Source: a virus. From it: a stretch of 54,989 nucleotides of DNA. The stretch spans positions 1-54,989 of IMG/VR virus record IMGVR_UViG_3300049989_000072; one strand, given 5' to 3'. How positions within the stretch are numbered: the stretch's first letter is position 1; each line of letters opens with the position of its first letter. This document shows, piece by piece, positions 1 through 22,702 of this stretch. A program made the translations under genes and the position numbers. Under the pieces are notes generated by a model. The model searched no databases. It was not told the DNA's origin and saw nothing but the letters and a program-made list of their open reading frames with translations.

Positions 1-127
1 AAGCACTACGGTGTCAAGGGGATGAAGTGGGGCGTTCGCAAGGATCGAGTCAAGAAGGCTCGCAAGCCCAAGCGCACTCCGTCCGAGCAGCACATCGAAT
101 CTCGGAAGATCAAGCGCAAGAAGCTTT
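1..127. repeat. terminal overlap; identical to nt 54863-54989 (circular closure)
   Basis: Both ends read AAGCACTACGGTGTCAAGGGGATGAAGTGG...ATCAAGCGCAAGAAGCTTT. The exact 127-nt identity is typical of an assembler k-mer overlap on a circular contig. Confidence 0.9.
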
Positions 128-345
128 CCGAGATGTCCAACGACGAGATCGCAACTCTCAATCGTCGTCTGCAGCTGGAGAGCCAGTACGCAAAGCTCAA
201 CCCCAACGCCTACCAGCGGGGTCGATCTGTCATCAACGAGTTTACCTCGGCGGTGAACACAGCAAACACGATTGCGTCGCTACCGACAAGCCCTCTGGGT
301 AAGGCGGTAATTGCCGGCGCCGGCGAGATCAAGGGCAAGTGGTAG
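1..345 (+). CDS. 3' part of the junction-spanning GNAT gene with two HYGVKGMKWGVRK motifs (5' part is 54200..54989)
   Basis: The frame of track ORF 22..345 is open back to nt 1. It is in phase with the open frame 54200..54989 once the 127-nt overlap is collapsed. It encodes KHYGVKGMKWGVRKDR plus a K/R-rich tail and ends at TAG 343-345. Confidence 0.6.
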   Translation, partial: KHYGVKGMKWGVRKDRVKKARKPKRTPSEQHIESRKIKRKKLSEMSNDEIATLNRRLQLESQYAKLNPNAYQRGRSVINEFTSAVNTANTIASLPTSPLGKAVIAGAGEIKGKW

Positions 346-352
346 CTTGCAG

Positions 353-363
353 TCAAAATGGAA
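353..363 (+). repeat. TCAAAATGGAA 11-mer, copy 1
   Basis: Exact 11-mer, 13 nt upstream of the TerL ATG. Confidence 0.9.
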
Positions 364-376
364 GGGAGGGTTAGCT

Positions 377-2131
377 ATGGCGCTGTCAAACACGGCAGTC
401 CCGAAGTACTACGGTCAGTTTCGGGACCAGGTGCTGCGTCATGAGATTCCGGTAAACCGGGAAGTCGGTCTCGAGATGAATCGAATCGACGAACTTATCG
501 CTAACCCTCTCTTCTACTACGACGATAAGGCAATCGACGGCTTTATCAACTTCTGTGAGGCAGAGCTTACTCTCACGGATGGTTCAGATCTTCAGCTTCT
601 CGATACATTCAAGCTGTGGTCCGAGCAGATCTTTGGTTGGTACTACTTCACAGAGCGTGAGGTGTGGCAGCCAGGAAAGAATGGACGCCCCGGTCGCTTT
701 GTGACCAAGGTCGTCAAGCAGAGGCTTGTCAAGAAGCAGTATCTTATCGTTGCACGTGGTGCCGCGAAGTCGATGTATGCTTCTTGCCTCCACAACTACT
801 TCCTCACGGTCGACACGGAGACCACTCACCAGATTGCGACGGCTCCGACGATGGCGCAGGCCGAAGAGGTCATGTCACCCATTCGTACTTCGATCACGAG
901 GGCTCGAGGACCTTACTTCCAGTTCCTGACGGACGGTTCTCTCCAGAACACCACCGGCAGTCGGTTCAATCGACAGAAGCTCTTCTCTTCCAAGAAGGGT
1001 GTCGAGAACAACTTGACCAACTCTCTACTTGAAGTTCGTCCAATGACGAAGGACAAGCTCCAGGGTCTTCGGTCAAAGATCAACACCATCGATGAGTGGC
1101 TCTCCGGAGACGTTCGCGAGGACGTGATCGGCGCTCTCGAGCAGGGCGCGTCGAAACTCGAAGACTATCTGATCGTTGCCATCTCTTCGGAGGGAACGGT
1201 CCGCAATGGTAGCGGCGATAGCATCAAAATGGAACTTCAAAAGATCCTCAATGGTGACTACTACGACCCGCACACCTCAATCTGGCACTACAAGCTCGAT
1301 GACATCAAGGAAGTCAACGACCCTTCGATGTGGCTGAAGGCTCAGCCAAACCTCAACCGTACCGTAACGTACGAAACCTACCATCGAGACGTTGAGAGAG
1401 CAGCTCAGGCTCCCGCAGCGCGAAACGACATCCTCGCCAAGCGCTTCGGAATTCCCATGGAGGGCTTCACCTACTTCTTCAGCTATGCTGAAACCGAAGT
1501 CTTTAGTGCACAGAGGCCTCGGGCGTACGATGGCATGGTCGGTGCGATGGGTGCGGACCTTTCGCAGGGTGATGACTTCTGTGCATTTACCTTCCTATTC
1601 CCTCTTCCCGACGGACGCTTTGGGGTCCAGGTCAGAAGCTACATCTCTCAGAAGACTCTTGACAATCTACCAGGCGCAACCCGTCTGAAGTACAATGAGT
1701 TCCTTGCAGAAGACACTCTTCATGTCCTCGAAGGCAGCGTCATTGATCTTGACGTGGTCTATGAGGACATCGACGCCTTTATCACGGACCACAAGTACGA
1801 CATTGCGGCGTTTGGGTATGACCCTTACAACGCAAACGAGTTCGTCAAGCGCTGGACGACTGAGAATGGACCTTTCGGGGTCGAGAAGGTCATTCAGGGC
1901 TCGAAGACCGAGTCCGTCCCCCTGGGGGAGCTCAAGAACTTCAGTCAGGACCGTCAGCTTGTCTTCACGGAGAAGCTGATGTCCTACGCGATGGGTAACG
2001 CCATCACGCTCGAGGACACCAACGGAAACCGCAAGCTGTCGAAGCTTCGCCACGAGAACAAGATCGATAATGTCTCCGCACTGATGGATGCTTACGTTGC
2101 GTGGAAGCGCAACCGCGAAGCGTTCGAGTAG
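377..2131 (+). CDS. terL: terminase large subunit
   Basis: ATG 377 is preceded by GGAGGG. There is a Walker-A-like 'IVARGAAKS' and C-terminal acidic nuclease-type motifs (GADLSQGDD, GYDPYNANEF, DNVSALMDA). Size (584 aa) and position upstream of the portal fit. Confidence 0.8.
   Translation: MALSNTAVPKYYGQFRDQVLRHEIPVNREVGLEMNRIDELIANPLFYYDDKAIDGFINFCEAELTLTDGSDLQLLDTFKLWSEQIFGWYYFTEREVWQPGKNGRPGRFVTKVVKQRLVKKQYLIVARGAAKSMYASCLHNYFLTVDTETTHQIATAPTMAQAEEVMSPIRTSITRARGPYFQFLTDGSLQNTTGSRFNRQKLFSSKKGVENNLTNSLLEVRPMTKDKLQGLRSKINTIDEWLSGDVREDVIGALEQGASKLEDYLIVAISSEGTVRNGSGDSIKMELQKILNGDYYDPHTSIWHYKLDDIKEVNDPSMWLKAQPNLNRTVTYETYHRDVERAAQAPAARNDILAKRFGIPMEGFTYFFSYAETEVFSAQRPRAYDGMVGAMGADLSQGDDFCAFTFLFPLPDGRFGVQVRSYISQKTLDNLPGATRLKYNEFLAEDTLHVLEGSVIDLDVVYEDIDAFITDHKYDIAAFGYDPYNANEFVKRWTTENGPFGVEKVIQGSKTESVPLGELKNFSQDRQLVFTEKLMSYAMGNAITLEDTNGNRKLSKLRHENKIDNVSALMDAYVAWKRNREAFE
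1224..1234 (+). repeat. TCAAAATGGAA 11-mer, copy 2
   Basis: Exact 11-mer inside terL; its ATG is in frame (..SIKMELQ..). Confidence 0.9.
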
Positions 2132-2136
2132 AGGAA

Positions 2137-2147
2137 TCAAAATGGAA
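2137..2147 (+). repeat. TCAAAATGGAA 11-mer, copy 3
   Basis: Exact 11-mer; its ATG (2142) is the start of motif protein 1. Confidence 0.9.
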
Positions 2148-2528
2148 TCAAATCTTGATGACTTCCTCATGCATTACGGTGTCAAGGGGATGAAGTGGGG
2201 CGTTCGCAACAAGAAGCCCTCTAAGCGGCTCGTTCGCAAGGCCAAGAAGATCCGGGAGCGCCGAGAAAAGCTTCGAGAAGATTCGATCAAGGAGCAGCAC
2301 GCCTATCAAAGGAAGCTGAATCAGCAGCAGGCACTTCGAATCGTCCTCGGGCTTGTTCAAAAGCGCTCTCGGATGAAGCTCAATGAGATCAATCTCGATT
2401 ATGCGCGAAAGCACAAGGTCAAGGAGATGATCGATGCAATGGGCGGCCTTCCCGTGGCCGACACTCCAACCGTACTCAACGCCACACCCACGAATGGTGT
2501 GTACGACATCACAAGCCTAGGGAGGTAA
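2142..2528 (+). CDS. HYGVKGMKWGVR-motif protein 1 (short, basic)
   Basis: N-terminus is MESNLDDFLMHYGVKGMKWGVRNKK, followed by a K/R-rich helical region. The ATG lies inside a TCAAAATGGAA 11-mer, with AGAGGA upstream. Confidence 0.7.
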   Translation: MESNLDDFLMHYGVKGMKWGVRNKKPSKRLVRKAKKIRERREKLREDSIKEQHAYQRKLNQQQALRIVLGLVQKRSRMKLNEINLDYARKHKVKEMIDAMGGLPVADTPTVLNATPTNGVYDITSLGR

Positions 2529-2535
2529 GCTCCGA

Positions 2536-3651
2536 ATGTCTCAAGAGCTTGACGACTTCCTTATGCACTACGGTGTCAAGGGAATGAAGTGGGGTGTCCG
2601 TAAGGACGATGGTCTGAATCGCAAGGAGCGACGAAAGGCAAAAGAAGAGGCTCGCAAGAAGCTCCCCAAAGAAGTCAAGAAGGGGGTCAGTAATGCCGAC
2701 CTCTTGTTCAAGACCGCGAAGGGTCGCCGGTACGCAGCTTCGTTGAAGCGTCAGATCGAAGCCGATGCCGCAGAGATCGCAAAGAACAACACGAAATTTC
2801 TGGCTAAGGGCGGATTCACCGACGCCGATGTCACTCCGGAGCAGAAGCGTAAGAAGCTTACTCCGCAAGAAATTGCGTGGCTTGCGGTTGCCGGTACCAG
2901 TCTTGCTGTGGTTGCGGCGGCATACGCCTATGATCCCATCAAGAATGCGGTACAAAAGCGAATCGTCGCCAATGTCAAGCCGGGCGACAAAGTTTCTTCC
3001 GGAAACTACACAGAGCTGGTCCATGGCAGCAAGTCGAGGACTTGGCGAGGTAAGAAGGCTGGTGGATATTTCCAGCCAGAAGCTCTGGAGCGCAAGGAAT
3101 TTGAGATTCCCGCGGGAACCACATTCCATCGAATTTCTCGAAAGCCGGAAACCACCTTTCGGTCGGAGACCGGTACCTACGCAACCCACTCGACCGAAGA
3201 CTTCAATCGCTATGTGAACTCTTTTCGTAAAGAGCTTGGTTCCGTCGAGCTGCATCATGTACAGTTCAAGGCGAAGCAGCCCGTTCGTGTTTCGGACTAC
3301 AAGACAAACTCCAGAGCTATGGCTATGGCCATGGAAGGTCGCGTTTCGTCTCAGAGTCCCGTAACGCTGGAAGAAGGCGCAAAGAGATTCCGAGCCGAAG
3401 CCGGTGGGTCGTGGCATCGAGTGGGTTTTAGCGACCCCAGCAAGCCCACCACTGTCCAGAGTTTCTTTGAAATTCTTGAGCACAAGGGTTATGGCGCACT
3501 TGTCGACGAAATGGACGCGGGGGTCATTGGTGAAACCCCTCTGATGGTCTTTGCAAATCGGCTTTTTGACACAAAGTCTTCTTCGGAACTCACCCCCGAG
3601 ATGATTGCTGCTGCTCAGCGAGCGCTCATCGAGATCAACAATAGAAAGTAA
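2536..3651 (+). CDS. HYGVKGMKWGVR-motif protein 2 (basic region, hydrophobic helix, unknown C-terminal domain)
   Basis: N-terminus is MSQELDDFLMHYGVKGMKWGVRKDD, with a hydrophobic helix IAWLAVAGTSLAVVAAAYAY. I cannot place the ~230-aa C-terminal domain. Confidence 0.7.
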   Translation: MSQELDDFLMHYGVKGMKWGVRKDDGLNRKERRKAKEEARKKLPKEVKKGVSNADLLFKTAKGRRYAASLKRQIEADAAEIAKNNTKFLAKGGFTDADVTPEQKRKKLTPQEIAWLAVAGTSLAVVAAAYAYDPIKNAVQKRIVANVKPGDKVSSGNYTELVHGSKSRTWRGKKAGGYFQPEALERKEFEIPAGTTFHRISRKPETTFRSETGTYATHSTEDFNRYVNSFRKELGSVELHHVQFKAKQPVRVSDYKTNSRAMAMAMEGRVSSQSPVTLEEGAKRFRAEAGGSWHRVGFSDPSKPTTVQSFFEILEHKGYGALVDEMDAGVIGETPLMVFANRLFDTKSSSELTPEMIAAAQRALIEINNRK

Positions 3652-3662
3652 GGAGGGGTCAC

Positions 3663-4823
3663 ATGGAAGAACCTCTTGACGACTTCCTTGCTCACTATGG
3701 AGTCAAGGGGATGAAGTGGGGTGTCCGTAAGGACGACGATACCCCCAAGGAGCCTCGAAAGACCCGCGCCGAGAAGAAGATCGAACGCGCAAAGGCCCAA
3801 AGAGAGCGTCGCGAGCGACGTGTGGGCAAGATCCAAGGTCGAGTCAACATCATGGAGACCCGTGTCTCCGAGCTCAACAAGATCGCGGAGACGACAAAGA
3901 ACCCCTTCCGTCGAGCCATGGCCGTAGGTGATGTCAAAGATCTCAAGAAGGATATTCGGAAGTCCCAGAAGGACATCAAGGCAATTCGTGCTGGAAAGTT
4001 CACGGACACCGAGAAAGCGCTCCTTATTGGTGGCGCCACGCTGGCCACTGCAGCTCTCGCATACGGTACTTACAAGGGTATTGAGACTGGCGACTTCCGA
4101 CGTCTTGCCGCAAAGGGTAAGGCCGCTCTCCAGCTTCGAGACCACGTGGACTTCAAAGAGAACAAGGAATTCGCCAACAAGAACTACACGGAGAATGATA
4201 TTTTCCATCGAGTAGTTACCGGAATCAATCCGGGTTGGGGCGATGAGCCTGGAACCTCGATGAACTGTCGTCGGGCTACGCTTGCGTACGAGATGCGTCG
4301 CCGAGGCTACAACGTCAAGGCAACAAAGACGCTTACCGGCGCCGGTCAGACCCCTTTGGGCATGGGAAACGTTCTCGCGAGAGGGGAAAACGCTCCCGAG
4401 CGCGGCGTTCTTTCGTTTGTCTCTAAGACGTTTAGCGAAACCATGGAAAAGTCGAAAAACCCGCAAGCAAAGACGCCGAACCTTGATCTCTCAAACCGAA
4501 TCAAGGCAAGTGGGTCTTGGGGCGCACAGCGAGTTTGGCGCGCGGACGACAATAGTCCCGGAATCCTCGATGCTCTCAGCAAACTTCCTAACGGTGCTCG
4601 AGGTGAGCTCGGTATGAAGTGGAAGATGGGTGGCGGACACAGCATGGCGTGGGAGATCATCAACGGAAAGCCTGTCATCTTTGACACGCAGGTTCTTCAG
4701 CGATACAATACGCCCGAGAAGTTTGAGGAACTCCAGAACATGCTTGAGGAGGCCGCTATTACGCGTCTCGACAACGTCCAACTCAACGAGGACTTCCTCC
4801 TAAGGTGGCTGCAGAATGCTTGA
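3663..4823 (+). CDS. HYGVKGMKWGVR-motif protein 3 with a C-terminal papain-fold toxin-like (Tox-PL1-like) domain
   Basis: N-terminus is MEEPLDDFLAHYGVKGMKWGVRKDD, with helix ALLIGGATLATAALAYGTY. The C-terminus has 'SMNCRRATLAYEMRRRGY' ... 'GGGHSMAWEIINGKPVIFDTQ', a Cys/His/Asp pattern of papain-fold polymorphic-toxin domains. Confidence 0.65.
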   Translation: MEEPLDDFLAHYGVKGMKWGVRKDDDTPKEPRKTRAEKKIERAKAQRERRERRVGKIQGRVNIMETRVSELNKIAETTKNPFRRAMAVGDVKDLKKDIRKSQKDIKAIRAGKFTDTEKALLIGGATLATAALAYGTYKGIETGDFRRLAAKGKAALQLRDHVDFKENKEFANKNYTENDIFHRVVTGINPGWGDEPGTSMNCRRATLAYEMRRRGYNVKATKTLTGAGQTPLGMGNVLARGENAPERGVLSFVSKTFSETMEKSKNPQAKTPNLDLSNRIKASGSWGAQRVWRADDNSPGILDALSKLPNGARGELGMKWKMGGGHSMAWEIINGKPVIFDTQVLQRYNTPEKFEELQNMLEEAAITRLDNVQLNEDFLLRWLQNA

Positions 4824-5055
4824 TCGTCAAGAAGCGACGCTTGTCGTTCAGAAGAACCTTCCCGAGGGTGACATCCAGAATCTCATCGAGTACCAAGATC
4901 TTTACGTCTTCCAGGTCTTTTCCCCAGACCCCGACGAAGGTCAGTACGACCCGTTCTTCTCCGTTCACATGGAGACCGGCGAGTTTCGAGATTTCTCTAT
5001 CCTCAAGGATGGGAATACAGCCCAGATCATCGCTCTCTTCCTCGAGGAAGACTAG
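4816..5055 (+). CDS. small acidic protein; candidate immunity partner of the preceding toxin-like domain
   Basis: The 79-aa ORF overlaps the upstream stop (ATGCTTGA). The function rests only on the toxin-then-small-ORF arrangement. Confidence 0.4.
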   Translation: MLDRQEATLVVQKNLPEGDIQNLIEYQDLYVFQVFSPDPDEGQYDPFFSVHMETGEFRDFSILKDGNTAQIIALFLEED

Positions 5056-5084
5056 TGCCATCGACACCATCTAGGAGGTGACAT

Positions 5085-6344
5085 GTGAGTTTCCGAGATC
5101 GCTTGGCTCATGCAGCCAACGCGTTCGTCCGTAATGACCGAGAGCTTGCTCGGCCGCCGGTAGACTATGGTCCGAGCTACTTTGCTCGCCCAGATCGTCG
5201 TCGAGCAGTATCTCCGACCGATCGCTCGATCGTTTCGTCGATCTACACGCGAATCGGCATCGATGTCACCGCCGTCGACATGCGACACGTTGTGCTCGAT
5301 CAAAATGGAAGATTCTTGAAGTTGAAGGAGAAGAGCGGACTCAACGTTTGTCTCTCTCTGGAAGCCAACATCGACCAGGCAGCTCGACACTTCATGCTGG
5401 ATGCCGTTCTCACGCTCTTTGATGAGGGTGTGGTGGCTCTCGTACCCATCGACACGTCTGTGGATACCACGGACACGGGCGCTTTCGACATCCACTCCAT
5501 GCGAGTCGGGAAGATCACGGGATGGTACCCGGAGCACGTTCGAGTCGACGTCTACAACGAGAAGACAGCTCAGCACGAAGAGCTCATTCTCCTGAAGCGA
5601 AGCGTCGCGATCGTCCAGAACCCCCTCTGGAACGTGATGAACGAGCCAAACTCGACTCTGCAGCGTCTGATTCGGAAGCTTGCTCTCATTGACTCCGTCG
5701 ACGAGCAGACGAGCTCGGGTAAGCTGGACATCATCATCCAGCTGCCCTACACCGTGAAGACGCAGACGAAGCGAGACCAGGCGGAGACCCGCCGAACCGA
5801 ACTTGAGCGCCAGATGAAGGACTCGAAGTACGGTATCGGCTACATCGACGGCACCGAGCGAATCACGCAGCTCAACCGTCCGGCGGAGAACAACATGCTT
5901 CGGCAGGTCGAGTACCTGACCAACATGCTGTACTCGCAGCTTGGTATCACCGAGGCCGTGTTCAACGGTACGGCTGACGAATCCGAGATGCTCAACTACT
6001 ACAACCGGACGATCGAGCCCCTCCTGACTGCTTTCCAGCAGGCAATGGAGCGCTCGTTCCTGACGAAGACGGCAAGGACGCAGCGGCAGGCTATTCGCTT
6101 CTATCGCGACCCGTTCAAGCTGGTTTCGATGGAGAAGATCGCCGAGATCGCGGACAAGTTCACGCGCAACGAGATCGCATCCTCCAACGAGATGCGTGGC
6201 GCAATCGGTATGGCTCCTTCCACGGATCCCAAGGCCGACGAACTCCGCAATGCGAACATGCCCCAGCCCAAGGACGAGGAAAAGCCGTCCGTGAAGCCAA
6301 CAGAGGAAGGAAGCCTTCAAAATGGAAGACGGCCGGAAGCCTGA
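5085..6344 (+). CDS. portal protein (putative)
   Basis: GTG start lies 8 nt after AGGAGG. The 419-aa ORF sits between the terminase block and the protease-capsid gene. The call rests on position, size and general portal-like composition. Confidence 0.6.
   Translation: MSFRDRLAHAANAFVRNDRELARPPVDYGPSYFARPDRRRAVSPTDRSIVSSIYTRIGIDVTAVDMRHVVLDQNGRFLKLKEKSGLNVCLSLEANIDQAARHFMLDAVLTLFDEGVVALVPIDTSVDTTDTGAFDIHSMRVGKITGWYPEHVRVDVYNEKTAQHEELILLKRSVAIVQNPLWNVMNEPNSTLQRLIRKLALIDSVDEQTSSGKLDIIIQLPYTVKTQTKRDQAETRRTELERQMKDSKYGIGYIDGTERITQLNRPAENNMLRQVEYLTNMLYSQLGITEAVFNGTADESEMLNYYNRTIEPLLTAFQQAMERSFLTKTARTQRQAIRFYRDPFKLVSMEKIAEIADKFTRNEIASSNEMRGAIGMAPSTDPKADELRNANMPQPKDEEKPSVKPTEEGSLQNGRRPEA
5300..5310 (+). 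repeat. TCAAAATGGAA 11-mer, copy 4
   Basis: Exact 11-mer inside the portal gene; the ATG is out of frame. Confidence 0.9.
6317..6327 (+). repeat. TCAAAATGGAA 11-mer, copy 5
   Basis: Exact 11-mer; its ATG (6322) is the start of the protease-capsid fusion. Confidence 0.9.
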
Positions 6345-8505
6345 TTTCTCAGGCTACGCCACTAAGGCGGGACTTCTGTGCACGGATGGTCGTACCATCA
6401 CGCCAGAGGCCTTTGCCCACCAGGATGGACTCACTGTCCCTCTCGCCTGGTCACACAAGCAGGGTGCGCCTGCCAACATCCTCGGTCACGGCGTGCTTTC
6501 TGCGCGTCCCGACGGTATGTGGGTAGACGCCTACTTCAACGAGACTACCATGGCTAAGGATGCCAAGGAGCTCGTGCGCCACGGGGACATTCGGTCCCTC
6601 TCCATCCTCGCAAATCAGCTCGAGCACCGTGGTTCCCACGTGGTGAAGGGTCAGATCAACGAGGTGAGCCTGGTTGTCCAGGGGGCGAACCCGGGTGCGT
6701 TCATCGAGGAAGTCTCGCTGGCGCATTCGATCAACGGTGTCGACGTCGTCGATGCCATCATCTACGCGGACCAGCCGCTGGAGCTCTCCGACGAGCTGAG
6801 GCATTCTGCCTCGGACGACGAGGATGAGTTCGAGGGTGAGGATGTTCTGGAGCACTCCAATCAGGAGATCTTCGACAGCCTCACCGACGAGCAGCGGGAG
6901 TTCGTTGGGACTCTTCTCGGGGATGCGCTCAAGCATTCCGCGTCCAATGAGGACGAGGACGAGGACAACGATTCGGAGGAGACCGACATGGCCGACGAGG
7001 TCAAGCACGAGGTTGCCATCGACGAGAGCAAGACCGTTCAGGAGATCCTGGACAGCTTCTCGCCGGAGCAGCTCCGCGTCGTGGAGGGTCTGATCGGTCA
7101 GGGCATCGAGAACGCACTTGCTGCGATCGACGATGATGACGCCGATGACGACAAGAACGACGACACCAAGGACGACAGCGCGGAGCACTCCGCAGCTGAC
7201 GAAGACAACCAGCTCGCACACGCCCACCAGGAGGGTAACACCATGACCATGAAGAACGCTTTCGACGAGGCGAAGAAGGAGCAGCACGGCTCCACGCTGT
7301 CGCACAACCAGCTCGACGTCGACCAGCTCGAGGCGATCCTCGGCCAGGCCAAGTCGTCGTCGAACGGTTCGACGCTGCACGAGTCCTTCCTCGCGCACGC
7401 CGGCACGTACGGCATCGACAACATCGATCTGCTCTTCCCCGACTTCAAGACCCTTCAGTCGACGCCCGAGTTCCTCTCGCGTCGCATGGAGTGGGTCAGC
7501 CACGTCTGGGGCTCGATCAAGCGCGCACCCTTCACGCGCATCAAGTCGGTCTTCGCCGACATCACCACCGAGGAGGCTCGTGCGCGAGGCTACGTCACCG
7601 GTGACCTGAAGAAGGACGAGGTGTTCAAGCTCCTCGACCGCAAGACCACGCCGCAGACCATCTACAAGAAGCAGAAGCTCGACCGCGATGACATCCTCGA
7701 CATCACGGACATCGACATCATCGTCTGGCTCAAGGCCGAGATGCGCATCATGCTCGACGAGGAGATCGCCGGCGCGATCCTGATCGGTGACGGCCGCGAG
7801 GTCGACTCGCCCGACAAGATCAAGGAGGACCACCTCCGTCCGATCGCCTCCGACCACGAGATGTACGCTCACCCGGTGAACGTCGCCTCGAACACGGAGC
7901 CGCGTCAGCTCGTCAAGACGATCCTGCGTTCGCGCAAGCACTACAAGGGCTCCGGCACGCCGACGCTCTACACGACGGACGACACCCTCACGGACCTCAT
8001 CCTCATCGAGGACCGCATGGGCCGTCGCCTCTACGAGACGGAGCAGTCCCTCGCGGCAGCTCTTCGCGTGAAGGACATCGTCGTCGTCGAGGTCTTCGAC
8101 CGCGCACCCGACGTCATGGCCATCATCGTGAACCTGCTCGACTACACCGTCGGTGCAGACCGCGGTGGCGCCGTCACGTTCTTCGAGGACTTCGACATCG
8201 ACTTCAACCAGCAGAAGTACCTGCTGGAGACGCGCATCTCGGGTGCGCTCACGAAGGCGAAGTCGGCTCTCGTGTTCCGCCGCACCGCCGGCACCGTCGT
8301 CACGGCTGAGGAGCCCACGTTCGACAACACGGACAACACGCTGACCATCCCGACGGTCACGGGCGTCCAGTACCGCATCGACGACCAGAACGCAGCTGCC
8401 GGCGACCGTGTGATCACCGAGGGCGTCGACGTCACGGCACACGCCAAGGCCGGCTACCAGCTCGCCGACGGCTCGACCAAGTCCTGGTCGTACGAGCCCG
8501 TCTGA
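6322..8505 (+). CDS. prohead protease - acidic scaffold - major capsid protein fusion
   Basis: The N-terminus is HK97-type S78 protease-like (PLAWSHKQG..ILGHG.., SLSILANQ, INEVSLVVQGANPGAFIEE). A D/E-rich linker with a duplicated EI(F/L)DS..EQ segment follows, then a ~420-aa capsid-like C-terminal part. Confidence 0.75.
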   Translation: MEDGRKPDFSGYATKAGLLCTDGRTITPEAFAHQDGLTVPLAWSHKQGAPANILGHGVLSARPDGMWVDAYFNETTMAKDAKELVRHGDIRSLSILANQLEHRGSHVVKGQINEVSLVVQGANPGAFIEEVSLAHSINGVDVVDAIIYADQPLELSDELRHSASDDEDEFEGEDVLEHSNQEIFDSLTDEQREFVGTLLGDALKHSASNEDEDEDNDSEETDMADEVKHEVAIDESKTVQEILDSFSPEQLRVVEGLIGQGIENALAAIDDDDADDDKNDDTKDDSAEHSAADEDNQLAHAHQEGNTMTMKNAFDEAKKEQHGSTLSHNQLDVDQLEAILGQAKSSSNGSTLHESFLAHAGTYGIDNIDLLFPDFKTLQSTPEFLSRRMEWVSHVWGSIKRAPFTRIKSVFADITTEEARARGYVTGDLKKDEVFKLLDRKTTPQTIYKKQKLDRDDILDITDIDIIVWLKAEMRIMLDEEIAGAILIGDGREVDSPDKIKEDHLRPIASDHEMYAHPVNVASNTEPRQLVKTILRSRKHYKGSGTPTLYTTDDTLTDLILIEDRMGRRLYETEQSLAAALRVKDIVVVEVFDRAPDVMAIIVNLLDYTVGADRGGAVTFFEDFDIDFNQQKYLLETRISGALTKAKSALVFRRTAGTVVTAEEPTFDNTDNTLTIPTVTGVQYRIDDQNAAAGDRVITEGVDVTAHAKAGYQLADGSTKSWSYEPV

Positions 8506-8531
8506 TCGGCTGACCTAAGGGGTGAAACGAA

Positions 8532-8918
8532 ATGCCGAAGTTCACAGGAGTTGTTGGCTACGGCCAGAGCGTACAGACCGATCCAGGAGTGTATGAGGAC
8601 CAGATCGTCGAGCGAAAGCTCTCTGGCGACGTTCTCAAGAATTCCCGGAAGATGCAGGACGGGACAGGCCCCATCAATGGGGATCTCACGCCCAGCAATT
8701 CGATCAGTCTTGTCGCCGATGCGTACGCGCGAGAGAACTTCTGGCGAATTCGGTATATTTCGTGGGCGGGGACGCTCTGGACGGTGACAGATGTGACCGT
8801 GGAGCGTCCCCGCCTCATCCTGAGGCTAGGAAAGGTGTACAATGGACCTCGACCTGCTGATACAGGCGAAGAGGGAACGCTGGCTGGAGCTTCAAGCTCT
8901 ACTGACGGCGATTCCTGA
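8532..8918 (+). CDS. head-tail joining / head-closure-like protein (tentative)
   Basis: 128-aa ORF directly after the capsid gene, with AAGGGGTG upstream. The C-terminal 'WRIRYISWAGTLWTVTDVTVERPRLILRLG' resembles head-closure proteins. Confidence 0.35.
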   Translation: MPKFTGVVGYGQSVQTDPGVYEDQIVERKLSGDVLKNSRKMQDGTGPINGDLTPSNSISLVADAYARENFWRIRYISWAGTLWTVTDVTVERPRLILRLGKVYNGPRPADTGEEGTLAGASSSTDGDS

Positions 8919-9177
8919 CGTCACAGAGGCATATTTCCAGCAGCCTAACAACGTGGACATGCGGTATCCCTGCATTGTCTTCGCAGCGGACGTTGTGGCT
9001 ACCCAGCATGCGTCCAACCGGCCATATTTTCGACAGCAGCGGTATCTGGTGACCATCATGGACACTCGACCGAACACACCTATCGAGCAGTATGTGGCAG
9101 AAATGCCCACGGCCAAGTTCAACAGACGATTCACAGCGGATAAACTGCACCACGTTGTGTACACTCTCTTCTTCTAA
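8842..9177 (+). CDS. neck / tail-completion-like protein (tentative)
   Basis: 111-aa ORF between the head-closure-like and tail-tube genes. 'RYPCIVF..' is reminiscent of tail-completion (DUF3168-like) proteins. Confidence 0.3.
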   Translation: MDLDLLIQAKRERWLELQALLTAIPDVTEAYFQQPNNVDMRYPCIVFAADVVATQHASNRPYFRQQRYLVTIMDTRPNTPIEQYVAEMPTAKFNRRFTADKLHHVVYTLFF

Positions 9178-9192
9178 GGAGCAACAAGACTC

Positions 9193-9948
9193 ATGAGCAA
9201 GATCAAGTGGGATCAGGTAGGCGAGCGCAAGTTCGAGAACGGCGTCGACCACGGCGTCCTCTACCTTCCCGACGAGACGGGTGTCTACGACACCGGCTTC
9301 GCATGGAACGGTCTCGTGTCGGTCACGGAGAAGCCCTCGGGCGCCGAGCCGACCCCCGTCTACGCGGACAACATCAAGTACATCACGCTGATCTCCGCCG
9401 AGGAGTACGCAGCGTCGATCGAGGCCATCACCTACCCCGACGAGTTCATGCTCTGCGACGGTACGGCTGAGGTTTCGGTGGGCGTCTACGCCGGTCAGCA
9501 GGCTCGTCGAGCGTTCGGTCTCTCGTACCGCACGAAGATCGGCGATGACCTGAGCCCGGAGCGTGGGTACAAGATCCACCTCATCTACGGCGCGCTCGCA
9601 GCGCCCACGGAGAAGGCCCACACGACCATCAACGACTCGCCCGAGGCCGCCACGTTCACGTGGGAGCTCTCGACGACGCCGGTGGAGATCGAGGGCTTCA
9701 AGCCCACGGCCTCGCTGGTCATCGACTCGACCAAGGTCGACGCGGCGAAGCTGAAGACGCTCGAGGACCTGCTGTACGGCACGGCTTCCTCCGAGCCCTC
9801 GCTCCCCACGCCCGATGAGGTCGTGGCGATCTTCGGCGCAGCCCCCGCAGGTGCTCAGACGATGGGGACCCAGTCGTTCTCCAACTCGGAGGACAACTCG
9901 ACGGACTTCGAGGTCCAGTCGGGCGGCGACGCCGACAACGCGTTCTAA
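9193..9948 (+). CDS. major tail (tube) protein, copy 1
   Basis: AAGGAGCAAC lies upstream. N-terminus 'KWDQVGERKFENGVDHGVLYLPDETG..FAWNGLVSVTEKP' is a tail-tube-type opening as I recall it. The position before the chaperone and tape measure fits. Confidence 0.55.
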   Translation: MSKIKWDQVGERKFENGVDHGVLYLPDETGVYDTGFAWNGLVSVTEKPSGAEPTPVYADNIKYITLISAEEYAASIEAITYPDEFMLCDGTAEVSVGVYAGQQARRAFGLSYRTKIGDDLSPERGYKIHLIYGALAAPTEKAHTTINDSPEAATFTWELSTTPVEIEGFKPTASLVIDSTKVDAAKLKTLEDLLYGTASSEPSLPTPDEVVAIFGAAPAGAQTMGTQSFSNSEDNSTDFEVQSGGDADNAF

Positions 9949-9973
9949 TCTAGAACGGAAAGGAGAACAGGGA

Positions 9974-10528
9974 GTGCTAACACTCACCATTCGCGATCAG
10001 GAACACTTCGACGACGAAACAAACAAGTTTGTCGAAGGACCGACCATCGTGACGCTCGAACTCGAGCACTCCCTGTTCTCCCTCAAGACGTGGGAATCAA
10101 AATGGAAGAAGCCATTCCTCTCGTCTGACAAAACTTCTGAGGAAACCGTTGACTACGTCAAGATCATGACGCTCAACGACGTTCCTGAGACTGCCTTTGG
10201 GCGTCTCACCCAAGAACATTACAACCAGGTCGCGGAGTACATCAACGATCCTCACACCGCAACCTGGTTCAGCGAGACTCCTGGCGGCCGCTCCGGCCCC
10301 CAAAAGGAGATCATCACTGCGGAGATCATCTACTACTGGATTATTTCCCTCAACATCGACTTCGAGACCCAGTATTGGAATCTCAGTCAACTTCTAGCGC
10401 TCGTTCGCGTTTGCAACGAGAAGAACACGCCGGAAAAGAAGAAGCGAAAGATGAGCATGTCCGATCTGGCAGCTCAACGCCGTGCTCTCAACGAAAAGCG
10501 AAGACGAGACATGGGAACCAAGGGTTAG
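9974..10528 (+). CDS. tail assembly chaperone-like protein
   Basis: GTG follows GGAAAGGAGAAC. 'LEHSLFSLKTWESKWKKPFL' matches a motif I recall from chaperone-position genes of Gram-positive phages, and the tail is basic. Confidence 0.4.
   Translation: MLTLTIRDQEHFDDETNKFVEGPTIVTLELEHSLFSLKTWESKWKKPFLSSDKTSEETVDYVKIMTLNDVPETAFGRLTQEHYNQVAEYINDPHTATWFSETPGGRSGPQKEIITAEIIYYWIISLNIDFETQYWNLSQLLALVRVCNEKNTPEKKKRKMSMSDLAAQRRALNEKRRRDMGTKG
10097..10107 (+). repeat. TCAAAATGGAA 11-mer, copy 6
   Basis: Exact 11-mer inside the chaperone-like gene (encodes ESKWK); the ATG is out of frame. Confidence 0.9.
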
Positions 10529-10536
10529 GAGGTGTC

Positions 10537-11337
10537 ATGGCAACCGTAGAGTGGAATAAAATTCCTGATCGAACCTTCCAATACGGCGTTGATCGTGGCG
10601 TCCTCTATGTCGAAGGCTCTCCTGGGGTTCCTTGGAACGGTCTTCTCCGGGTTGACGAGAAGACCGAAGGCGCTCAGCTTCGTCCGGTCTTCATGGAAGG
10701 TCGATTGATCGATCAGGTTAGCTATCCGGGAAACTTCTCAGGTGCAATTTCGGCTATCACCTACCCCGACGAGTTCGAGCTTTGCGATGGATACGCTGTC
10801 TCTGCCGACGGCCTCATGCTGAGTCATCAGCCTCGCAAGAAGTTCTCTCTCACCTACCGGACAAAGGTAGCAAACCCTCTGACCCAAGAGCTCGCTAACC
10901 GAATTCACCTCATTTTTGGTGCTCGGATTGCCCCAACAGATCGATCGAACGCTTCTGTGGGTACAAACGTCAACCCCCTAGCGTTTAGCTGGCCCGTATC
11001 GGCCGTTCCTGCTATATTCACGGATCGTCGTCCCACGGCTCATGTAATTGTGGACTCTCGACTGGTGGATCCCTCGGCATTCAGCATGCTCGAGGATATT
11101 CTCTACGGAACCGACACCACAAACCCTCGATTTCCCACCCCCGCCGAGATTACGTCGCTGATGAAGCTTCGTGGCCTTGTCTTTGCGCTGGGATCTTCCG
11201 GTACGAGCGCTATCATCAAGCTTGGTCAGCCGGCCGAACTTGTCGGCGACCCCCTTGTTGGTGTTTATCGTACGACAGAGAATTCTCCTCTGGTTGCCGT
11301 TCCGGGCAGACCTGACATCTATCGATTGGAGCTGTAA
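10537..11337 (+). CDS. tail-tube paralog (copy 2)
   Basis: ATG follows AGGAGGTGTC. 'EWNKIPDRTFQYGVDRGVLYVEGSPGVPWNGLLRVDEK', 'AITYPDEFELCDG', 'FSLTYRTK' and 'EDILYGT...PTPAEI' are collinear with the 9193 protein. Confidence 0.5.
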   Translation: MATVEWNKIPDRTFQYGVDRGVLYVEGSPGVPWNGLLRVDEKTEGAQLRPVFMEGRLIDQVSYPGNFSGAISAITYPDEFELCDGYAVSADGLMLSHQPRKKFSLTYRTKVANPLTQELANRIHLIFGARIAPTDRSNASVGTNVNPLAFSWPVSAVPAIFTDRRPTAHVIVDSRLVDPSAFSMLEDILYGTDTTNPRFPTPAEITSLMKLRGLVFALGSSGTSAIIKLGQPAELVGDPLVGVYRTTENSPLVAVPGRPDIYRLEL

Positions 11338-11909
11338 TGGCATTCTTCGACGTTCCAGCTCTTGATGGTAGCGGTCGACTTCCCGTCAACGTTCGAACGG
11401 CCAACGCCGCCACGGACGAATTCCGAATGCAGGACTCTCTGCTACCGGTTGTCACCACTCTTCCGACGGCAAGCGCCGAAAAGATCCGTGGTCGACAGGT
11501 TCTTCTCAATAGCGACAACACGGTCTACGTTTCGGACGGCACCAACTGGCGACCGATTGGCGCAACCAGCGAGATCGGATGGGGTCAGCTAGGTAGCGTT
11601 GGCCCCAACTTCTACATGGACGGCGCAAGTACAATCTACGCCTTCCGCAACGGTCGCGCGATCGACTTCCGGTTCCGATTCGGACGAACGAGCGGCTCTC
11701 TCGTTGCCGGAGACAACCTGTACCAGATGGCGGCAATGTACGTCCCGTTTGGTAACGGTGACACGGTTCTCAACGCAGTTCAGAGGGCGGGAACGGGCAC
11801 ACCAACCCCGATTGCTTGCTACCTCACCGGATCAGGGACAATCTTCCTTGGTACCCCGGCGTCTACCATGAACCAGGTCCATGTTCAGGGACGTTTCTAC
11901 CTCCCGTAA
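11337..11909 (+). CDS. fiber-tip-like small structural protein (tentative)
   Basis: 190 aa. 'VLLNSDNTVYVSDGTNWRPIG' resembles tail-fibre distal motifs, and the gene sits inside the tail module. Confidence 0.3.
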   Translation: MAFFDVPALDGSGRLPVNVRTANAATDEFRMQDSLLPVVTTLPTASAEKIRGRQVLLNSDNTVYVSDGTNWRPIGATSEIGWGQLGSVGPNFYMDGASTIYAFRNGRAIDFRFRFGRTSGSLVAGDNLYQMAAMYVPFGNGDTVLNAVQRAGTGTPTPIACYLTGSGTIFLGTPASTMNQVHVQGRFYLP

Positions 11910-11920
11910 TCAAAATGGAA
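11910..11920 (+). repeat. TCAAAATGGAA 11-mer, copy 7
   Basis: Exact 11-mer immediately after stop TAA 11907-11909, 7 nt before GTG 11928. Confidence 0.9.
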
Positions 11921-11927
11921 GTGATCA

Positions 11928-12305
11928 GTGATTCGAATTCGCTCTAGGGGCTCTTTTCGAAACACCGAAAAGTTCCTTGATAAGATGGATCGCCGTGAGA
12001 TCTTCCAGGCTCTGGAAGCATACGGCAGAGAAGGCGTTGCAGCCCTCGAACTTTACACTCCTATGGACTCCGGCATCACCGCGGCTTCTTGGGACTTTGT
12101 AATCGAGGAAACGAACGACACCTACTCCATCACATGGACTAACAGCAATGTCGTCGCGGGAATGCCCCTCGTTATCATGCTTCAGTATGGTCACGGTACG
12201 GGAACCGGCGGTTGGGTTCGAGGTAGAGACTTCATCAACCCCGCAATTCAACCAGTGTTTGACAAGATCGCCGACGAGGTGTGGAAGGAGGTGGTGAACG
12301 CATGA
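11928..12305 (+). CDS. HK97 gp10-like head-tail component
   Basis: 125 aa. '..LELYTPMDSGITAASWDF..' fits the gp10-family pattern (aPvdTG.L). GTG start lies 8 nt after a TCAAAATGGAA copy. Confidence 0.45.
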   Translation: MIRIRSRGSFRNTEKFLDKMDRREIFQALEAYGREGVAALELYTPMDSGITAASWDFVIEETNDTYSITWTNSNVVAGMPLVIMLQYGHGTGTGGWVRGRDFINPAIQPVFDKIADEVWKEVVNA

Positions 12306-16834: not shown

Positions 16835-16838
16835 CACG

Positions 16839-17693: not shown

Positions 17694-17695
17694 GG

Positions 17696-18763: not shown

Positions 18764-18775
18764 GAAGGAGAAAAC

Positions 18776-19183: not shown

Positions 19184-19205
19184 CACGTCCTATAGTGAGA
19201 CCCCC
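19170..19205 (+). promoter_or_regulatory. promoter-like motif P1 (CCTCGCAGGACTAACACGTCCTATAGTGAGACCCCC)
   Basis: One of nine copies in identical register (21 nt from the first C to TATAGT). It overlaps the holin 3' end, 20 nt upstream of GTG 19225. Confidence 0.55.
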
Positions 19206-19220
19206 TCTTTGAAAGGAGAA
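19205..19220 (+). promoter_or_regulatory. conserved initiation motif copy (CTCTTTGAAAGGAGAA)
   Basis: Variant of TCTCTTGAAAGGAGAAC, 4 nt before GTG 19225. Confidence 0.6.
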
Positions 19221-19224
19221 GCGC

Positions 19225-19509: not shown

Positions 19510-19537
19510 CACCCGCCCATCACCAGATAGGCATCAC

Positions 19538-19589: not shown

Positions 19590-19595
19590 CTGTCT

Positions 19596-19619: not shown

Positions 19620-19623
19620 TGAG

Positions 19624-19658: not shown

Positions 19659-19684
19659 TACCCACTTCACACAAGGAGATACCC

Positions 19685-22700: not shown

Positions 22701-22702
22701 AT

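Follow-up and report, generated by a model that had tools for sequence, protein, structure and literature searches.

The window analysed here is the whole of a viral DNA of 54,989 nucleotides (IMG/VR record IMGVR_UViG_3300049989_000072). It represents a circularly closed assembly, its first 127 nt being identical to its last 127 nt, and motif counts are not affected by this repetition. The structural module, which includes the genes for TerL, the portal, a capsid-protease fusion and a tail protein, contains seven exact copies of the 11-mer TCAAAATGGAA, all of them on the + strand. Early-type promoters and the gene for a phage RNA polymerase homologue are found further along the same DNA. The features relevant to this work are as follows.

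353 to 363, + strand: motif copy 1 (class E), 8 nt past the stop codon of the gene at 22 to 345; followed by the SD sequence GGGAGGG and the TerL start codon at 377
1224 to 1234, + strand: copy 2 (class A), within TerL, with the ATG in frame; aTC AAA ATG GAA encodes I-K-M-E (in S-I-K-M-E-L)
2137 to 2147, + strand: copy 3, whose ATG at 2142 opens the reading frame of a DUF7211 protein, 6 nt past the stop codon of TerL
5300 to 5310, + strand: copy 4, within the portal gene (5085 to 6344), in the frame GAT CAA AAT GGA AGA (D-Q-N-G-R); no gene start follows
6317 to 6327, + strand: copy 5 (class B), whose ATG at 6322 starts the capsid-protease fusion; the SD sequence GGAAGGAAG lies 8 nt upstream of the ATG
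10097 to 10107, + strand: copy 6 (class D), within the phrog_4338 tail gene (9974 to 10528), in the frame TCA AAA TGG AAG (S-K-W-K)
11910 to 11920, + strand: copy 7 (class F), abutting the TAA at 11907 to 11909, 18 nt ahead of the GTG (11928) that starts the gene before the tape-measure gene
19160 to 19201, + strand: example of the early-type promoter (CTCGCAgGAcTAACAcgtcCTATAGTGAGAcccc), whose core hexamer plus GAGA resembles the late motif
near 19995, 20641, 22714, 24990, 35722, 46375, 47102 and ~51390: other copies of the early-type promoter
48024 to 50756, + strand: two-barrel (YonO/RdRP-like) RNA polymerase homologue of 910 aa, with HTH domains at both ends; full-length match to phrog_4291 (E = 0)

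The original prediction, that an exact 11-mer recurs seven times on the + strand between positions 353 and 11920 and that this exceeds chance, was borne out, as the seven copies compare with a mean of 0.04 and a maximum of 1 in 100 dinucleotide-preserving shuffles. Its account of the gene context also held when all seven sites were re-examined. No site beyond the seven was detected when the window was searched with TCAAAATGGAA allowing one mismatch. Counting both strands, the 55 kb contain only eight TCAAAAT heptamers, the eighth being at 19612, while CAAAATGG is confined to the seven motif sites. The GATCAAAATG at 19611, previously put forward as a related motif, adjoins a variant of the early-type promoter and appears to be incidental. 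All seven copies belong to the structural module and are packed into 21% of the genome (rough probability 6e-4). Since every gene of the window is on the + strand, the restriction of the motif to this strand means that it is co-oriented with transcription.

Comparison with related phages indicates that TCAAAATGGAA is one phage's version of a one-strand signal with the core TCAAAATGG, kept at matching places of the structural genes in a large and very diverse group. The core of the element is TCAAAAT-[G/A]-[G/A]-N-A. TCAAAATGG is conserved in a siphovirus supercluster that includes phages of Arthrobacter, Gordonia, Streptomyces, Curtobacterium, Microbacterium and Rhodococcus (with phage Pepy6 among the latter), as well as the Lactococcus 1706 group. 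By cluster name, we take the members to include Arthrobacter AW, Gordonia DJ and Streptomyces BI (Scap1-type). In 41 non-redundant loci, 730 kb in total, it was found 104 times on the coding strand against 4.5 expected, which is a 23-fold enrichment, and once on the other strand, where 1.4 occurrences were expected. The metagenomic loci compared are not near-identical copies of the window, as their capsid identity to it is 36-55%. Arthrobacter clusters AM and AU also belong to this motif-bearing supercluster (PMC5513430). We found no published description of the motif.

It had been proposed that lack of conservation at orthologous positions in related phages would speak against a function of the 11-mer; the core is kept at such positions across this very diverse group. 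Five of the seven window sites have orthologous counterparts, namely the two associated with TerL (ahead of the gene and within it), the one on the start codon of the capsid-protease, the one in the tail gene and the one 18 nt before the pre-tape-measure gene. Copies orthologous to the first lie at 4665 and 5272 in loci L010 and L017, respectively. The codons of copy 2 recur at the same position in 10 of 23 distinct TerL orthologues, and also in Lactococcus phage P162. The capsid start in most relatives reads TCAAAATG, and TCA AAA TGG is present in a short stretch of the tail gene in all of the ~22 actinophage-type orthologues. The 18-nt register of copy 7 is common to Arthrobacter phages Egad (16843 to 16861) and Circum (16997 to 17015), whose pre-tape-measure proteins are 55-60% identical to that of the window. 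As to copy 3, analogous motif copies are found in Curtobacterium phage JoyLin, where genes 11 and 14, both of the DUF7211 type, have them at their annotated start codons. In Streptomyces phage Scap1 (61% GC, 43 kb) there are only three TCAAAAT sequences, and these are the TerL-internal, capsid-start and tail-gene sites, while in P162 (33% GC), of which 50 kb were examined, the first 19 kb contain all 11 occurrences of TCAAAATG, each of them on the + strand. Among 154 motif sites across relatives, the embedded AUG is a gene start in 46, a further 25 abut an SD sequence and start codon, and ~54% of sites are intragenic.

The three intragenic copies of the window are read in three different frames and employ seldom-used codons, which argues for action of the motif at the nucleotide level; in this genome Lys is encoded by AAA in 4% of cases, Ser by TCA in 5%, Gln by CAA in 9% and Glu by GAA in 18%. 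In the portal gene, the codons CAA, AAT and GGA of copy 4 account for 9%, 18% and 16% of their own families. At the tail-gene site of relatives, Ser-Lys is invariably encoded by TCA AAA, whereas the flanking Leu, Ser, His and Glu codons vary freely. Copy 6 uses the second S-K-W of the tail protein and not the first, which places it 12 nt downstream of where most relatives have the motif; locus L015 has the same shifted position and L017 has both copies, so that the motif was moved or doubled, yet kept. The earlier suggestion that the signal acts through DNA or RNA, and not through protein, is thus well supported by the differing frames and by codon choice.

Similarity to the early-type promoters, which are conserved in the early region throughout this phage group, provides a hint as to the nature of the element. 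Their core, cCTATA(A/G)T-GAGA, and the late one, tTCA(A/T)AAT-GGNA, share a common build, in which an AT-rich hexamer is followed by G-R-R-A, and TCATAATGG and TCAAAATAGG are variants fitting the same family. The fourth base after the hexamer, which had no part in selecting either set, is A in 79% of early sites and in 80% of late ones. The late element is devoid of the upstream TCGCA..TTACA part of the early promoter; upstream of the late sites we observed no more than a slight bias, towards C at 3 nt and T at 1 nt ahead of the first T of the motif. From the fifth to about the eleventh position after the hexamer early promoters contain C or T only, which suggests that initiation takes place in the GAGA directly following the hexamer.

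All these motif-bearing phages encode a two-barrel (YonO-like) RNA polymerase of ~900 aa with the GADFDGD sequence. The 910-aa homologue of the window gives a weak hit to PF05183 and bears, apart from GADFDGD, HTHs similar to sigma-70 region 4. Homologues of this polymerase were found in 250 phage records and the phrog_4338 tail gene in 240, with a nearly identical host breakdown. The phage enzyme has been discussed as a putative RNA polymerase to which no promoter was assigned (10.1101/842583, bioRxiv), and the related YonO transcribes late genes of SPbeta (PMC5467207). Phages of hosts as different as Actinobacteria and Lactococcus have retained this element, which points to a phage-encoded reader, and the phage's own single-subunit two-barrel RNA polymerase would be the most likely one. 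On the other hand, the N-terminal motif of the polymerase is related to the DUF7211 tag of virion proteins; thus, the enzyme may be injected and serve the early-type promoters instead.

The options listed originally were a short late promoter, an RNA processing or ribosome-loading site, and a protein binding site, with no choice made between them. The first is also the one that we favour, and we propose tentatively, at somewhat less than even chances, that the motif is a minimal internal late promoter. Throughout the siphovirus supercluster, the element marks the late operon of packaging, head and tail genes. It could act as a 'core-only' promoter or initiator on the non-template strand, giving rise to extra transcripts within the long structural operon, with additional starts upstream of the portal, capsid, tail-tube and tape-measure genes. 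Loss of the upstream part could make it a weak, late-acting promoter, firing after new polymerase builds up. Because no conserved sequence precedes the late sites, such a promoter would need to be recognized through ~11 nt around the start point. Transcription would probably start within the hexamer or immediately after it, as otherwise the SD sequence directly abutting the motif at many sites would be lost from the RNA. The placement of the copies may reflect economy: there is almost no intergenic space in the genome and the motif contains ATG and GG-A, so it would be cheapest to accommodate over the spacer, start and second codon, or next to an abutting SD sequence. Where no such place is free, the motif would be written into the coding sequence with rare codons.

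Several points speak against a promoter. Initiation past the hexamer would leave the capsid start codon out of the RNA made from the capsid site, which is the best conserved one. The whole structural arm could be transcribed already from an early-type promoter close to the physical left end. The intragenic location of about half of the sites, and the presence of the TerL site in a minority of orthologues, also have to be counted against it. At position 26414 of Circum a terminator is followed by the motif, but this is a single such case and not decisive; other terminators of this phage have ribosome-binding sites directly after them and no promoter. Gene starts devoid of an SD sequence occur also without the motif, and this makes an argument from leaderless mRNA weak.

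A close parallel to a minimal late promoter is that of T4, TATAAATA, served by gp55/gp33 with the gp45 clamp. Like the motif, it is very short, AT-rich, similar to a -10 element and devoid of a -35, and it is repeated before and within late genes, on the non-template strand only and in the late class only. T4 late transcription is carried out by the host core polymerase with a phage sigma-like protein, whereas the relatives have no gene annotated as gp55-like, and the candidate reader here is a lineage-specific, single-subunit two-barrel polymerase. Moreover, the motif sequence differs, and the SD sequence that abuts it does not agree with a start 6-7 nt downstream. A further parallel is offered by the enzymes of phiKZ and AR9 and by YonO of SPbeta, where a two-barrel phage polymerase, not of the T7 type, transcribes late genes; late promoters of phiKZ and AR9 consist of only a few conserved bases around the start site. 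The candidate reader is, however, a single 900-aa chain with HTHs at both ends, distant from YonO and different in architecture from the enzymes of phiKZ and AR9, which are multisubunit and not related to it in build, and nothing resembling the motif was found in the yonN-yonK region of SPbeta.

Another explanation, somewhat unlikely in our opinion, is that the motif operates in the late polycistronic mRNA (as UCAAAAUGG), either as a site of cleavage defining 5' ends or as an element that loads ribosomes, enhances translation or stabilises the message. Its reader would be a phage RNA-binding protein or nuclease, or the ribosome. Strict co-orientation with transcription is in accord with such a role, as are the 46 gene-start AUGs and the 25 further sites abutting an SD sequence and start codon, the -18 register before the pre-tape-measure gene fixed in three phages, and the form of many sites, UCAAAAU-GGGAG or -AGGAG, where an SD-like sequence comes after an A-rich tract. 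Occurrence in two registers with respect to start codons, and at conserved sites within genes and far from any start, is not what one would expect of a translation enhancer, and SD-less starts do without the motif. Cleavage at the TerL and tail-gene sites would cut expression of proteins which we assume to be needed in low amounts (phrog_4338 has no known function), but cleavage between the capsid SD sequence and its AUG would hurt the protein needed most. The two host groups, Actinobacteria and Lactococcus, have different RNases, and none is annotated in the phages; neither a common RNA structure around the sites nor a match in Rfam was found. A similar situation is presented by SAS of cluster K mycobacteriophages, conserved short sequences located at translation starts of a subset of genes and always in the coding orientation. 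Nevertheless, SAS lie at a fixed short distance upstream of starts, while the motif occupies two registers and about half of its copies, the best-conserved ones included, are intragenic.

It is rather unlikely that the motif is a target in DNA for some phage protein which does not initiate transcription, either as an orientation-dependent roadblock or regulator setting the time of late expression, similar to a stoperator, or as a strand-specific nicking site of one of the conserved HNH endonucleases, as in T5. An asymmetric, exact sequence in few copies on a single strand would suit such a protein, and an HNH endonuclease gene lies near the left end in all relatives examined. The early-type promoter at the left end would also need restraint if the structural genes are truly late. 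The stoperators of cluster A mycobacteriophages (the gp71 sites of L5) are asymmetric, near-exact, short and co-oriented, and they often overlap stop and start codons in tiny intergenic gaps, as the motif does. However, stoperators belong to temperate phages, bind the immunity repressor, are located throughout both arms of the genome and vary from one immunity group to another. The phages described here appear to be lytic, with no integrase or immunity repressor annotated in any relative, and their sites are limited to the structural arm rather than spread genome-wide. Repressor sites normally diverge fast, whereas the core of the motif is constant across phages of two host phyla. Neither a roadblock nor nicking would explain the likeness to the early promoter core.

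We also regard as quite unlikely a weak late promoter for host sigma-A RNA polymerase, composed of a -10-like cAAAAT and a GGGA-type discriminator without a -35, and probably assisted by a phage factor, as in N4 and T4 late transcription. CAAAAT and CATAAT do retain the key -10 positions, A at 2 and T at 6, and GGGA or GGAA following many copies is similar to the discriminator optimum of sigma region 1.2. Late genes of N4 and crAss-like phages are transcribed by the host enzyme, and this could also be the case here if the phage polymerase is virion-borne and early. Nevertheless, a sigma-70 start 6-8 nt past the hexamer would leave out of the RNA the SD sequence that abuts the motif at E- and F-type sites, and also the start codon of the capsid gene. 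The first base of the hexamer is C and not T, both a TG extension and a -35 element are missing, and a generic sigma-70 scan gave nothing at the motif sites.

That the motif has no function, and results from codon or amino-acid usage, from shared ancestry of protein motifs (IKME, SKW) or from chance, is hardly credible: two intragenic sites do fall on conserved residues (IK(M)EL of TerL, SKW of the tail protein), and the former site is kept in fewer than half of the orthologues, but copy number, strand bias and codon statistics across loci that are far from identical effectively refute this reading, given also the invariant synonymous positions amid saturated neighbours, the relocation within the tail gene and the conservation of non-coding and start-codon copies.

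A separate problem is the internal TerL product from nt 1229, which was suggested previously. Such a product is unlikely to be general, as the motif is absent from this site in 13 of the 23 distinct TerL orthologues, six of which have Leu or Phe in place of Met.

Seven exact copies of the 11-mer TCAAAATGGAA are present in the window, all on the + strand and all within 353-11920, as the original prediction had stated. Its further claims were likewise borne out: such repetition is negligible by chance (mean of 0.04 copies in dinucleotide-preserving shuffles), four copies lie at gene boundaries and three inside genes in three different frames, and the flanks are free of extended conservation, with just a preference for an A preceding the motif and a G following it. 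The copies are listed below, with the class of orthologous site and its occurrence in related phages and metagenomic loci.

353, + strand: upstream of the Shine-Dalgarno sequence (SD) and ATG of TerL (class E, just 5' of the TerL SD; also in metagenomic loci L010 and L017)
1224, + strand: within TerL, frame I-K-M-E (class A, at ...RNGSGDxIKMEL)
2137, + strand: start codon of a DUF7211 protein (class at start codons of DUF7211 genes; also in Curtobacterium phage JoyLin)
5300, + strand: within the portal gene, frame D-Q-N-G-R
6317, + strand: start codon of the capsid-protease fusion (class B, capsid-protease start codon; also in most relatives)
10097, + strand: within the phrog_4338 tail gene, frame S-K-W-K (class D, at ...LEHSLVSL-SKWE)
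11910, + strand: 18 nt upstream of the GTG that starts the gene ahead of the tape measure (class F, exactly 18 nt 5' of the start of the pre-tape-measure gene; also at 16843 in Arthrobacter phage Egad and 16997 in Arthrobacter phage Circum)

Class C, located where the gene following the capsid begins, is not represented in the window. The pre-tape-measure proteins of Egad and Circum are 55-60% identical to that of the window. One-mismatch variants of TCAAAATGGAA add no site in the window, where CAAAATGG is confined to the seven sites and TCAAAAT occurs eight times on both strands together. One further TCAAAATG, the only one besides these sites, lies at 19612-19619, directly upstream of an early-type promoter variant (TCTCGCAGGATCTACAGGCCATATAATG); it is not extended by GGAA and is probably an incidental copy.

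In the window the first 127 nt (1-127) are identical to the last 127 nt (54863-54989), which makes it a circularly closed assembly of a complete phage genome of 54,862 bp. Homology with the termini of JoyLin, Scap1 (Streptomyces), OhMyWard (Gordonia), Circum, and P162 and 1706 (both Lactococcus) places the physical cos junction probably at about 51,090-51,100 (...CCTCCGCATCGCCTCCCTCC / TCAAAAATTCCCCGGGGGACATTTTT; region 51040-51130). Genes are arranged as follows.

First from the physical left end, + strand: lysis and DUF7211 genes
Next, to about 19 kb in window coordinates, + strand: TerL, portal, capsid-protease and tail genes
19-47 kb, + strand: many small early genes and replication genes
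48024-50756, right end, + strand: gene of the 910-aa protein

All genes being on the + strand, the confinement of the motif to that strand means that it is co-directional with transcription. Association of the motif with genome ends was considered and rejected, because TCAAAAT at the left end of OhMyWard is due solely to a conserved A-run of the cos region; the other ends read CCCAAAAA or similar. Scans for Rfam families and tRNAs found none.

No close relatives of the window were found in the phage collection or IMG/VR. The best nucleotide matches, to TerL and capsid genes of Curtobacterium and Microbacterium phages, show about 71% identity, and the capsid shares at most 55% amino-acid identity with metagenomic contigs (most 36-50%). 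The nearest relatives are thus too distant for comparison of the full 11-mer, and conservation concerns its 9-mer core, which was found lineage-wide and at orthologous positions. JoyLin, a distant relative, contains eight copies of TCAAAAT, all on the + strand, four of which supply annotated start codons (genes 11, 14, 18, the capsid gene, and 19). The same pattern is seen in 39 metagenomic loci (GC 0.39-0.60) collected via the capsid protein. For 41 non-redundant loci (730 kb), a second-order Markov model predicts 4.5 copies of TCAAAATGG on the coding strand and 1.4 on the other; the observed numbers are 104 and 1. Counts on the opposite strand are thus near expectation and give no evidence of counter-selection there. 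Copies of TCAAAAT in annotated phage genomes are distributed between the strands as follows.

Circum, first 50 kb: 12 on +, 3 on -
OhMyWard, first 50 kb: 7 on +, 3 on -
Scap1, whole genome: 3 on +, 0 on -
ReqiPepy6 (Rhodococcus), 24-27 kb structural region: 7 on +, 0 on -
DizzyRudy, 24-27 kb structural region: 5 on +, 0 on -
Egad, 24-27 kb structural region: 7 on +, 0 on -
Lactococcus phage 1706, 24-27 kb structural region: 13 on +, 1 on -

For P162, of which 50 kb were examined, the 8-mer TCAAAATG was counted: there are 11 copies on the + strand, every one of them inside the first 19 kb, and none on the - strand. The motif is clustered in the structural region of the relatives and limited to about 20-40% of each genome, and the same core is shared by phages of Actinobacteria and of Lactococcus. 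In Scap1 (61% GC) the only three TCAAAAT copies in 43 kb are exactly sites A, B and D.

That the signal acts at the level of nucleotides rather than protein, as originally proposed, is supported by the composition of the three intragenic copies, each made of codons rare in the window (AAA 4% of Lys, TCA 5% of Ser, CAA 9% of Gln, GAA 18% of Glu, AAT 18% of Asn, GGA 16% of Gly). Codons ending in A are strongly disfavoured genome-wide, as the first three of these show; the GAA share is 28% in structural genes versus 18% genome-wide. Orthologous protein contexts of sites A and D were gathered without requiring the motif. At site D all of the approximately 22 distinct actinophage-type sequences read TCA AAA TGG, while no such constancy is seen in the codons for the surrounding Leu, Ser, His, Val and Glu residues, which vary freely. 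K-T-W or S-L-W replaces the first S-K-W in the window and in locus L015, where the motif is found at a second S-K-W, 12 nt downstream; locus L017 has it at both positions. More distant low-GC lineages are without it at this site. Such turnover with retention is the strongest evidence of selection on the nucleotide word itself. At site A, the motif is found in 10 of 23 distinct TerL orthologues and the Met is replaced by Leu or Phe in six others; hence the internal TerL translation product, which the original prediction had considered, is not a conserved feature. In most relatives the phrog_4338 site could form a small hairpin with the motif in its loop (CUCCC-UU-UCAAAAU-GGGAG, 5-bp stem; for example L003 13190-13215 and L012 8095-8120), which was not seen at the other site classes or in the window.

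The early region of the window contains a separate promoter-like element of about 30 bp, TCGCAnnAnTT(T/G)ACA-N4-5-CTATA(A/G)T-GAGAcccc, at the following places.

19160-19201: early-type element near 19181
19975-20015: early-type element near 19995
20612-20652: early-type element near 20641
22694-22734: early-type element near 22714
24960-25000: early-type element near 24990
35700-35740: early-type element near 35722
46345-46385: early-type element near 46375
47085-47125: early-type element near 47102
About 51375-51400: early-type variant, about 300 nt from the left end

This architecture is kept in Gordonia, Streptomyces, Arthrobacter, Rhodococcus and Lactococcus phages. The -35-like and -10-like parts are just 4-5 nt apart, so that the element, though conserved across host phyla, is not a canonical sigma-A promoter; it may serve the phage polymerase as its strong promoter. 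Downstream of it, a conserved leader carries the ribosome-binding motif CTCTTGAAAGGAG, which is situated 5-8 nt upstream of early-region start codons, also in JoyLin and Circum. The cassette (T)CTCTTGAAAGGAG(AAC) lies at these positions.

19209, 20723, 20918, 22028, 23399, 25368, + strand: ribosome-binding cassette
28244, 36328, 40468, 45107, 52930, + strand: ribosome-binding cassette
51206, - strand: ribosome-binding cassette

Its 5' part, CTCTT, exceeds what pairing with 16S rRNA explains.

When the early and late sequences are aligned by their hexamers, early C-TATAAT-G-A-R-A corresponds to late T-CAAAAT-G-G-N-A. The fourth position after the hexamer, which was used in selecting neither set, is A in 79% of the early sites and in 80% of the late ones, and TCATAATGG and TCAAAATAGG are variants fitting the same family. 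Bases 5 to about 11 after the early hexamer are all C or T, which suggests initiation in the GAGA directly after it. At late sites of types E and F and in Circum the SD abuts the hexamer, and a start within or just after the hexamer would be needed to retain it in the RNA. The 3' extension of the motif reads GGAA in the window and GGGAG or AGGAG in other phages. The explanation with the best support is that the motif belongs, as a core-only form, to the promoter family of the phage itself and would provide the structural operon with internal late promoters. Like known late promoters read with a phage polymerase or sigma factor, it is short, tied to the non-template strand and confined to late genes. 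We hold this reading tentatively, somewhat short of probable, because sequence upstream of late sites is almost unconserved; because, at the best-conserved site, a transcript begun after the hexamer would leave out the capsid start codon; and because the candidate polymerase carries an N-terminal motif related to a tag of DUF7211 proteins, so it may serve the early promoters.

This candidate is the 910-aa protein, a full-length match to phrog_4291 ('RNA-dependent RNA polymerase', E = 0) with a weak Pfam RdRP match and helix-turn-helix motifs resembling sigma-70 region 4 at each end. It contains GADFDGD, which resembles NADFDGD, a motif of the beta-prime subunits of cellular RNA polymerases. 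Koert et al. noted the DxDGD catalytic-loop signature of two-barrel RNA polymerases, which GADFDGD matches, and described the supercluster and its putative polymerase, with a supporting HHpred result, while no promoter was assigned (bioRxiv 10.1101/842583). A homologue is present in 250 phage records and, with few exceptions among the matches listed, lies close to the right end of its record; the phrog_4338 tail gene, in 240 records, has a nearly identical host breakdown. The window encodes a dedicated candidate polymerase of its own, which would be the most likely reader of the late motif. A bolder proposal goes further: single-chain two-barrel polymerases of about 900 aa, YonO/RdRP-like and with sigma region 4-like HTH domains built in, would form a hitherto uncharacterised family, with TCAAAATGG(NA) as its initiator-type late promoter and the 30-bp TCGCA..TTACA..CTATAATGAGA as the strong early promoter of the same enzyme. 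We consider this possible and on balance doubtful. YonO, a distant relative, is the polymerase that transcribes SPbeta late genes; the paper on it states that its promoter has still to be identified (PMC5467207). The yonN-yonK gap of SPbeta, the only mapped YonO start region, contains no TCAAAATG-like or early-type element, and was set aside as uninformative, YonO being very distant.

The tag in question, (D/E)DFLxHYGVKGMKWGVRK, opens five proteins of the window.

54227-54290, + strand: DUF7211-motif protein
54866-54989 continuing to 1-345, + strand: DUF7211-motif protein
2142-2210, + strand: DUF7211-motif protein
2536-2610, + strand: DUF7211-motif protein
3663-3740, + strand: DUF7211-motif protein

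A PHROG family annotated 'virion structural protein' matches these proteins, and the start of the 1706 structural protein gp07 is related to the tag, which looks like a capsid-targeting or ejection-protein signal. The polymerase N-terminus (48024-48150) carries a related ELAHYGILRRSGRYPWGSG, kept in JoyLin and Scap1 (ELAHYGILRxSGRYPWGSG against DFLxHYGVKGMKWG). Because of this relatedness, the polymerase may be packaged in the virion and injected, serving the early-type promoters.

An unlikely, still serious, alternative is a signal in RNA, concerned with 5' ends, ribosome loading or stability. Among the 154 coding-strand matches to TCAAAAT[GA][GA], the motif supplies a putative start codon at 46 and is followed by an SD and a start codon at 25, and copies at gene boundaries take two registers relative to start codons; when all ATGs are judged by the same criterion, only 13% qualify as gene starts. 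The coincidence with start codons nevertheless says little about function, since a motif containing ATG and GG-A, in genomes where intergenic DNA is almost absent, is cheapest to place over the spacer, start and second codon or against an SD. The remaining 83 sites are intragenic (three of seven in the window), in contrast to the start-associated sequences of cluster K phages, which are fixed a few bases upstream of starts. The gene after the capsid usually begins at the motif ATG without an SD in actinophages; in low-GC relatives the order is motif, SD, ATG. Leaderless mRNA was considered, and the argument is weak, as starts without an SD also occur without the motif (L009, L011, OhMyWard, Scap1).

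It is improbable that the motif is a place in the DNA where a regulator of the roadblock type binds or a nickase cuts. The stoperators of cluster A mycobacteriophages are similarly asymmetric, co-directional with transcription and often at gene boundaries; however, they belong to temperate phages, bind an immunity repressor and occupy both early and late arms, whereas the motif is restricted to the structural arm. The annotations of JoyLin, Circum, OhMyWard, Scap1 and P162, and of the structural-region stretches of ReqiPepy6, DizzyRudy, Egad and 1706, list neither an integrase nor a repressor. Strand specificity and low copy number would be compatible with single-strand interruptions of the T5 type, which are physical nicks at a strand-specific consensus in virion DNA. 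Chi- or KOPS-type sites are set by host enzymes, genome-wide and oriented with replication or translocation, while the motif is regional and its core is common to two host phyla.

Less probable again is a weak late promoter for host sigma-A. CAAAAT and CATAAT keep the A at position 2 and the T at position 6 of TATAAT, with C at position 1 and GGGA or GGAA following. Against this, there is almost no conserved sequence upstream (no -35, no TG extension), a start 6-8 nt downstream would lose the abutting SD of the E- and F-type sites and of Circum, and a sigma-70 promoter and terminator scan of window positions 1-20000 gave nothing above shuffled background and nothing at motif sites. That a word so enriched on one strand has no function is hardly credible.

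Returning to the reading as a late promoter, short late-promoter words are an already known kind of element; the word itself, its conservation in two phyla, its upkeep in coding sequence and its association with a polymerase family not yet characterised appear to be new. No description of it was found in the searchable literature (YonO promoters, the actinophage supercluster, phage 1706 transcription, the Arthrobacter phage paper), and a full-text search for its sequence returned primers only. Single-subunit relatives of cellular two-barrel RNA polymerases are of evolutionary interest, and we know of no promoters for them. The motif and the early family are concrete candidates, directly testable on many cultured SEA-PHAGES isolates. 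If the bolder proposal is true, they would be the first defined promoters of this polymerase class and would make up a complete host-independent two-tier transcription programme, kept from phages of Actinobacteria to those of Lactococcus. If confirmed as promoters, they would explain expression timing in several hundred sequenced Arthrobacter, Gordonia, Streptomyces, Rhodococcus, Microbacterium, Curtobacterium and Lactococcus phages, and could yield a compact orthogonal polymerase/promoter pair for Gram-positive hosts that differ widely in GC. Should the motif prove not to be a promoter, its interest would remain: a signal of 9-11 nt that keeps to the same codons across about 50% protein divergence, and is relocated when lost, shows clearly that overlapping nucleotide information is under selection within phage structural genes. 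The motif has a use in annotation as well, because it marks the true start codons of the capsid and neighbouring genes.

A separate observation concerns strong intrinsic terminators inside operons of Circum.

26362-26394: strong intrinsic terminator
28499-28531: strong intrinsic terminator
31830-31866: strong intrinsic terminator

A strong terminator stands 13 nt upstream of TCAAAATGGGAG at 26414, and an argument for promoter function from this order was dropped, as the two other terminators directly precede a ribosome-binding site without a promoter. Two of the three have near-identical hairpins; all three have a ribosome-binding site and gene 5-20 nt beyond and no recognisable promoter. This implies either leaky termination or a polymerase that ignores such terminators.
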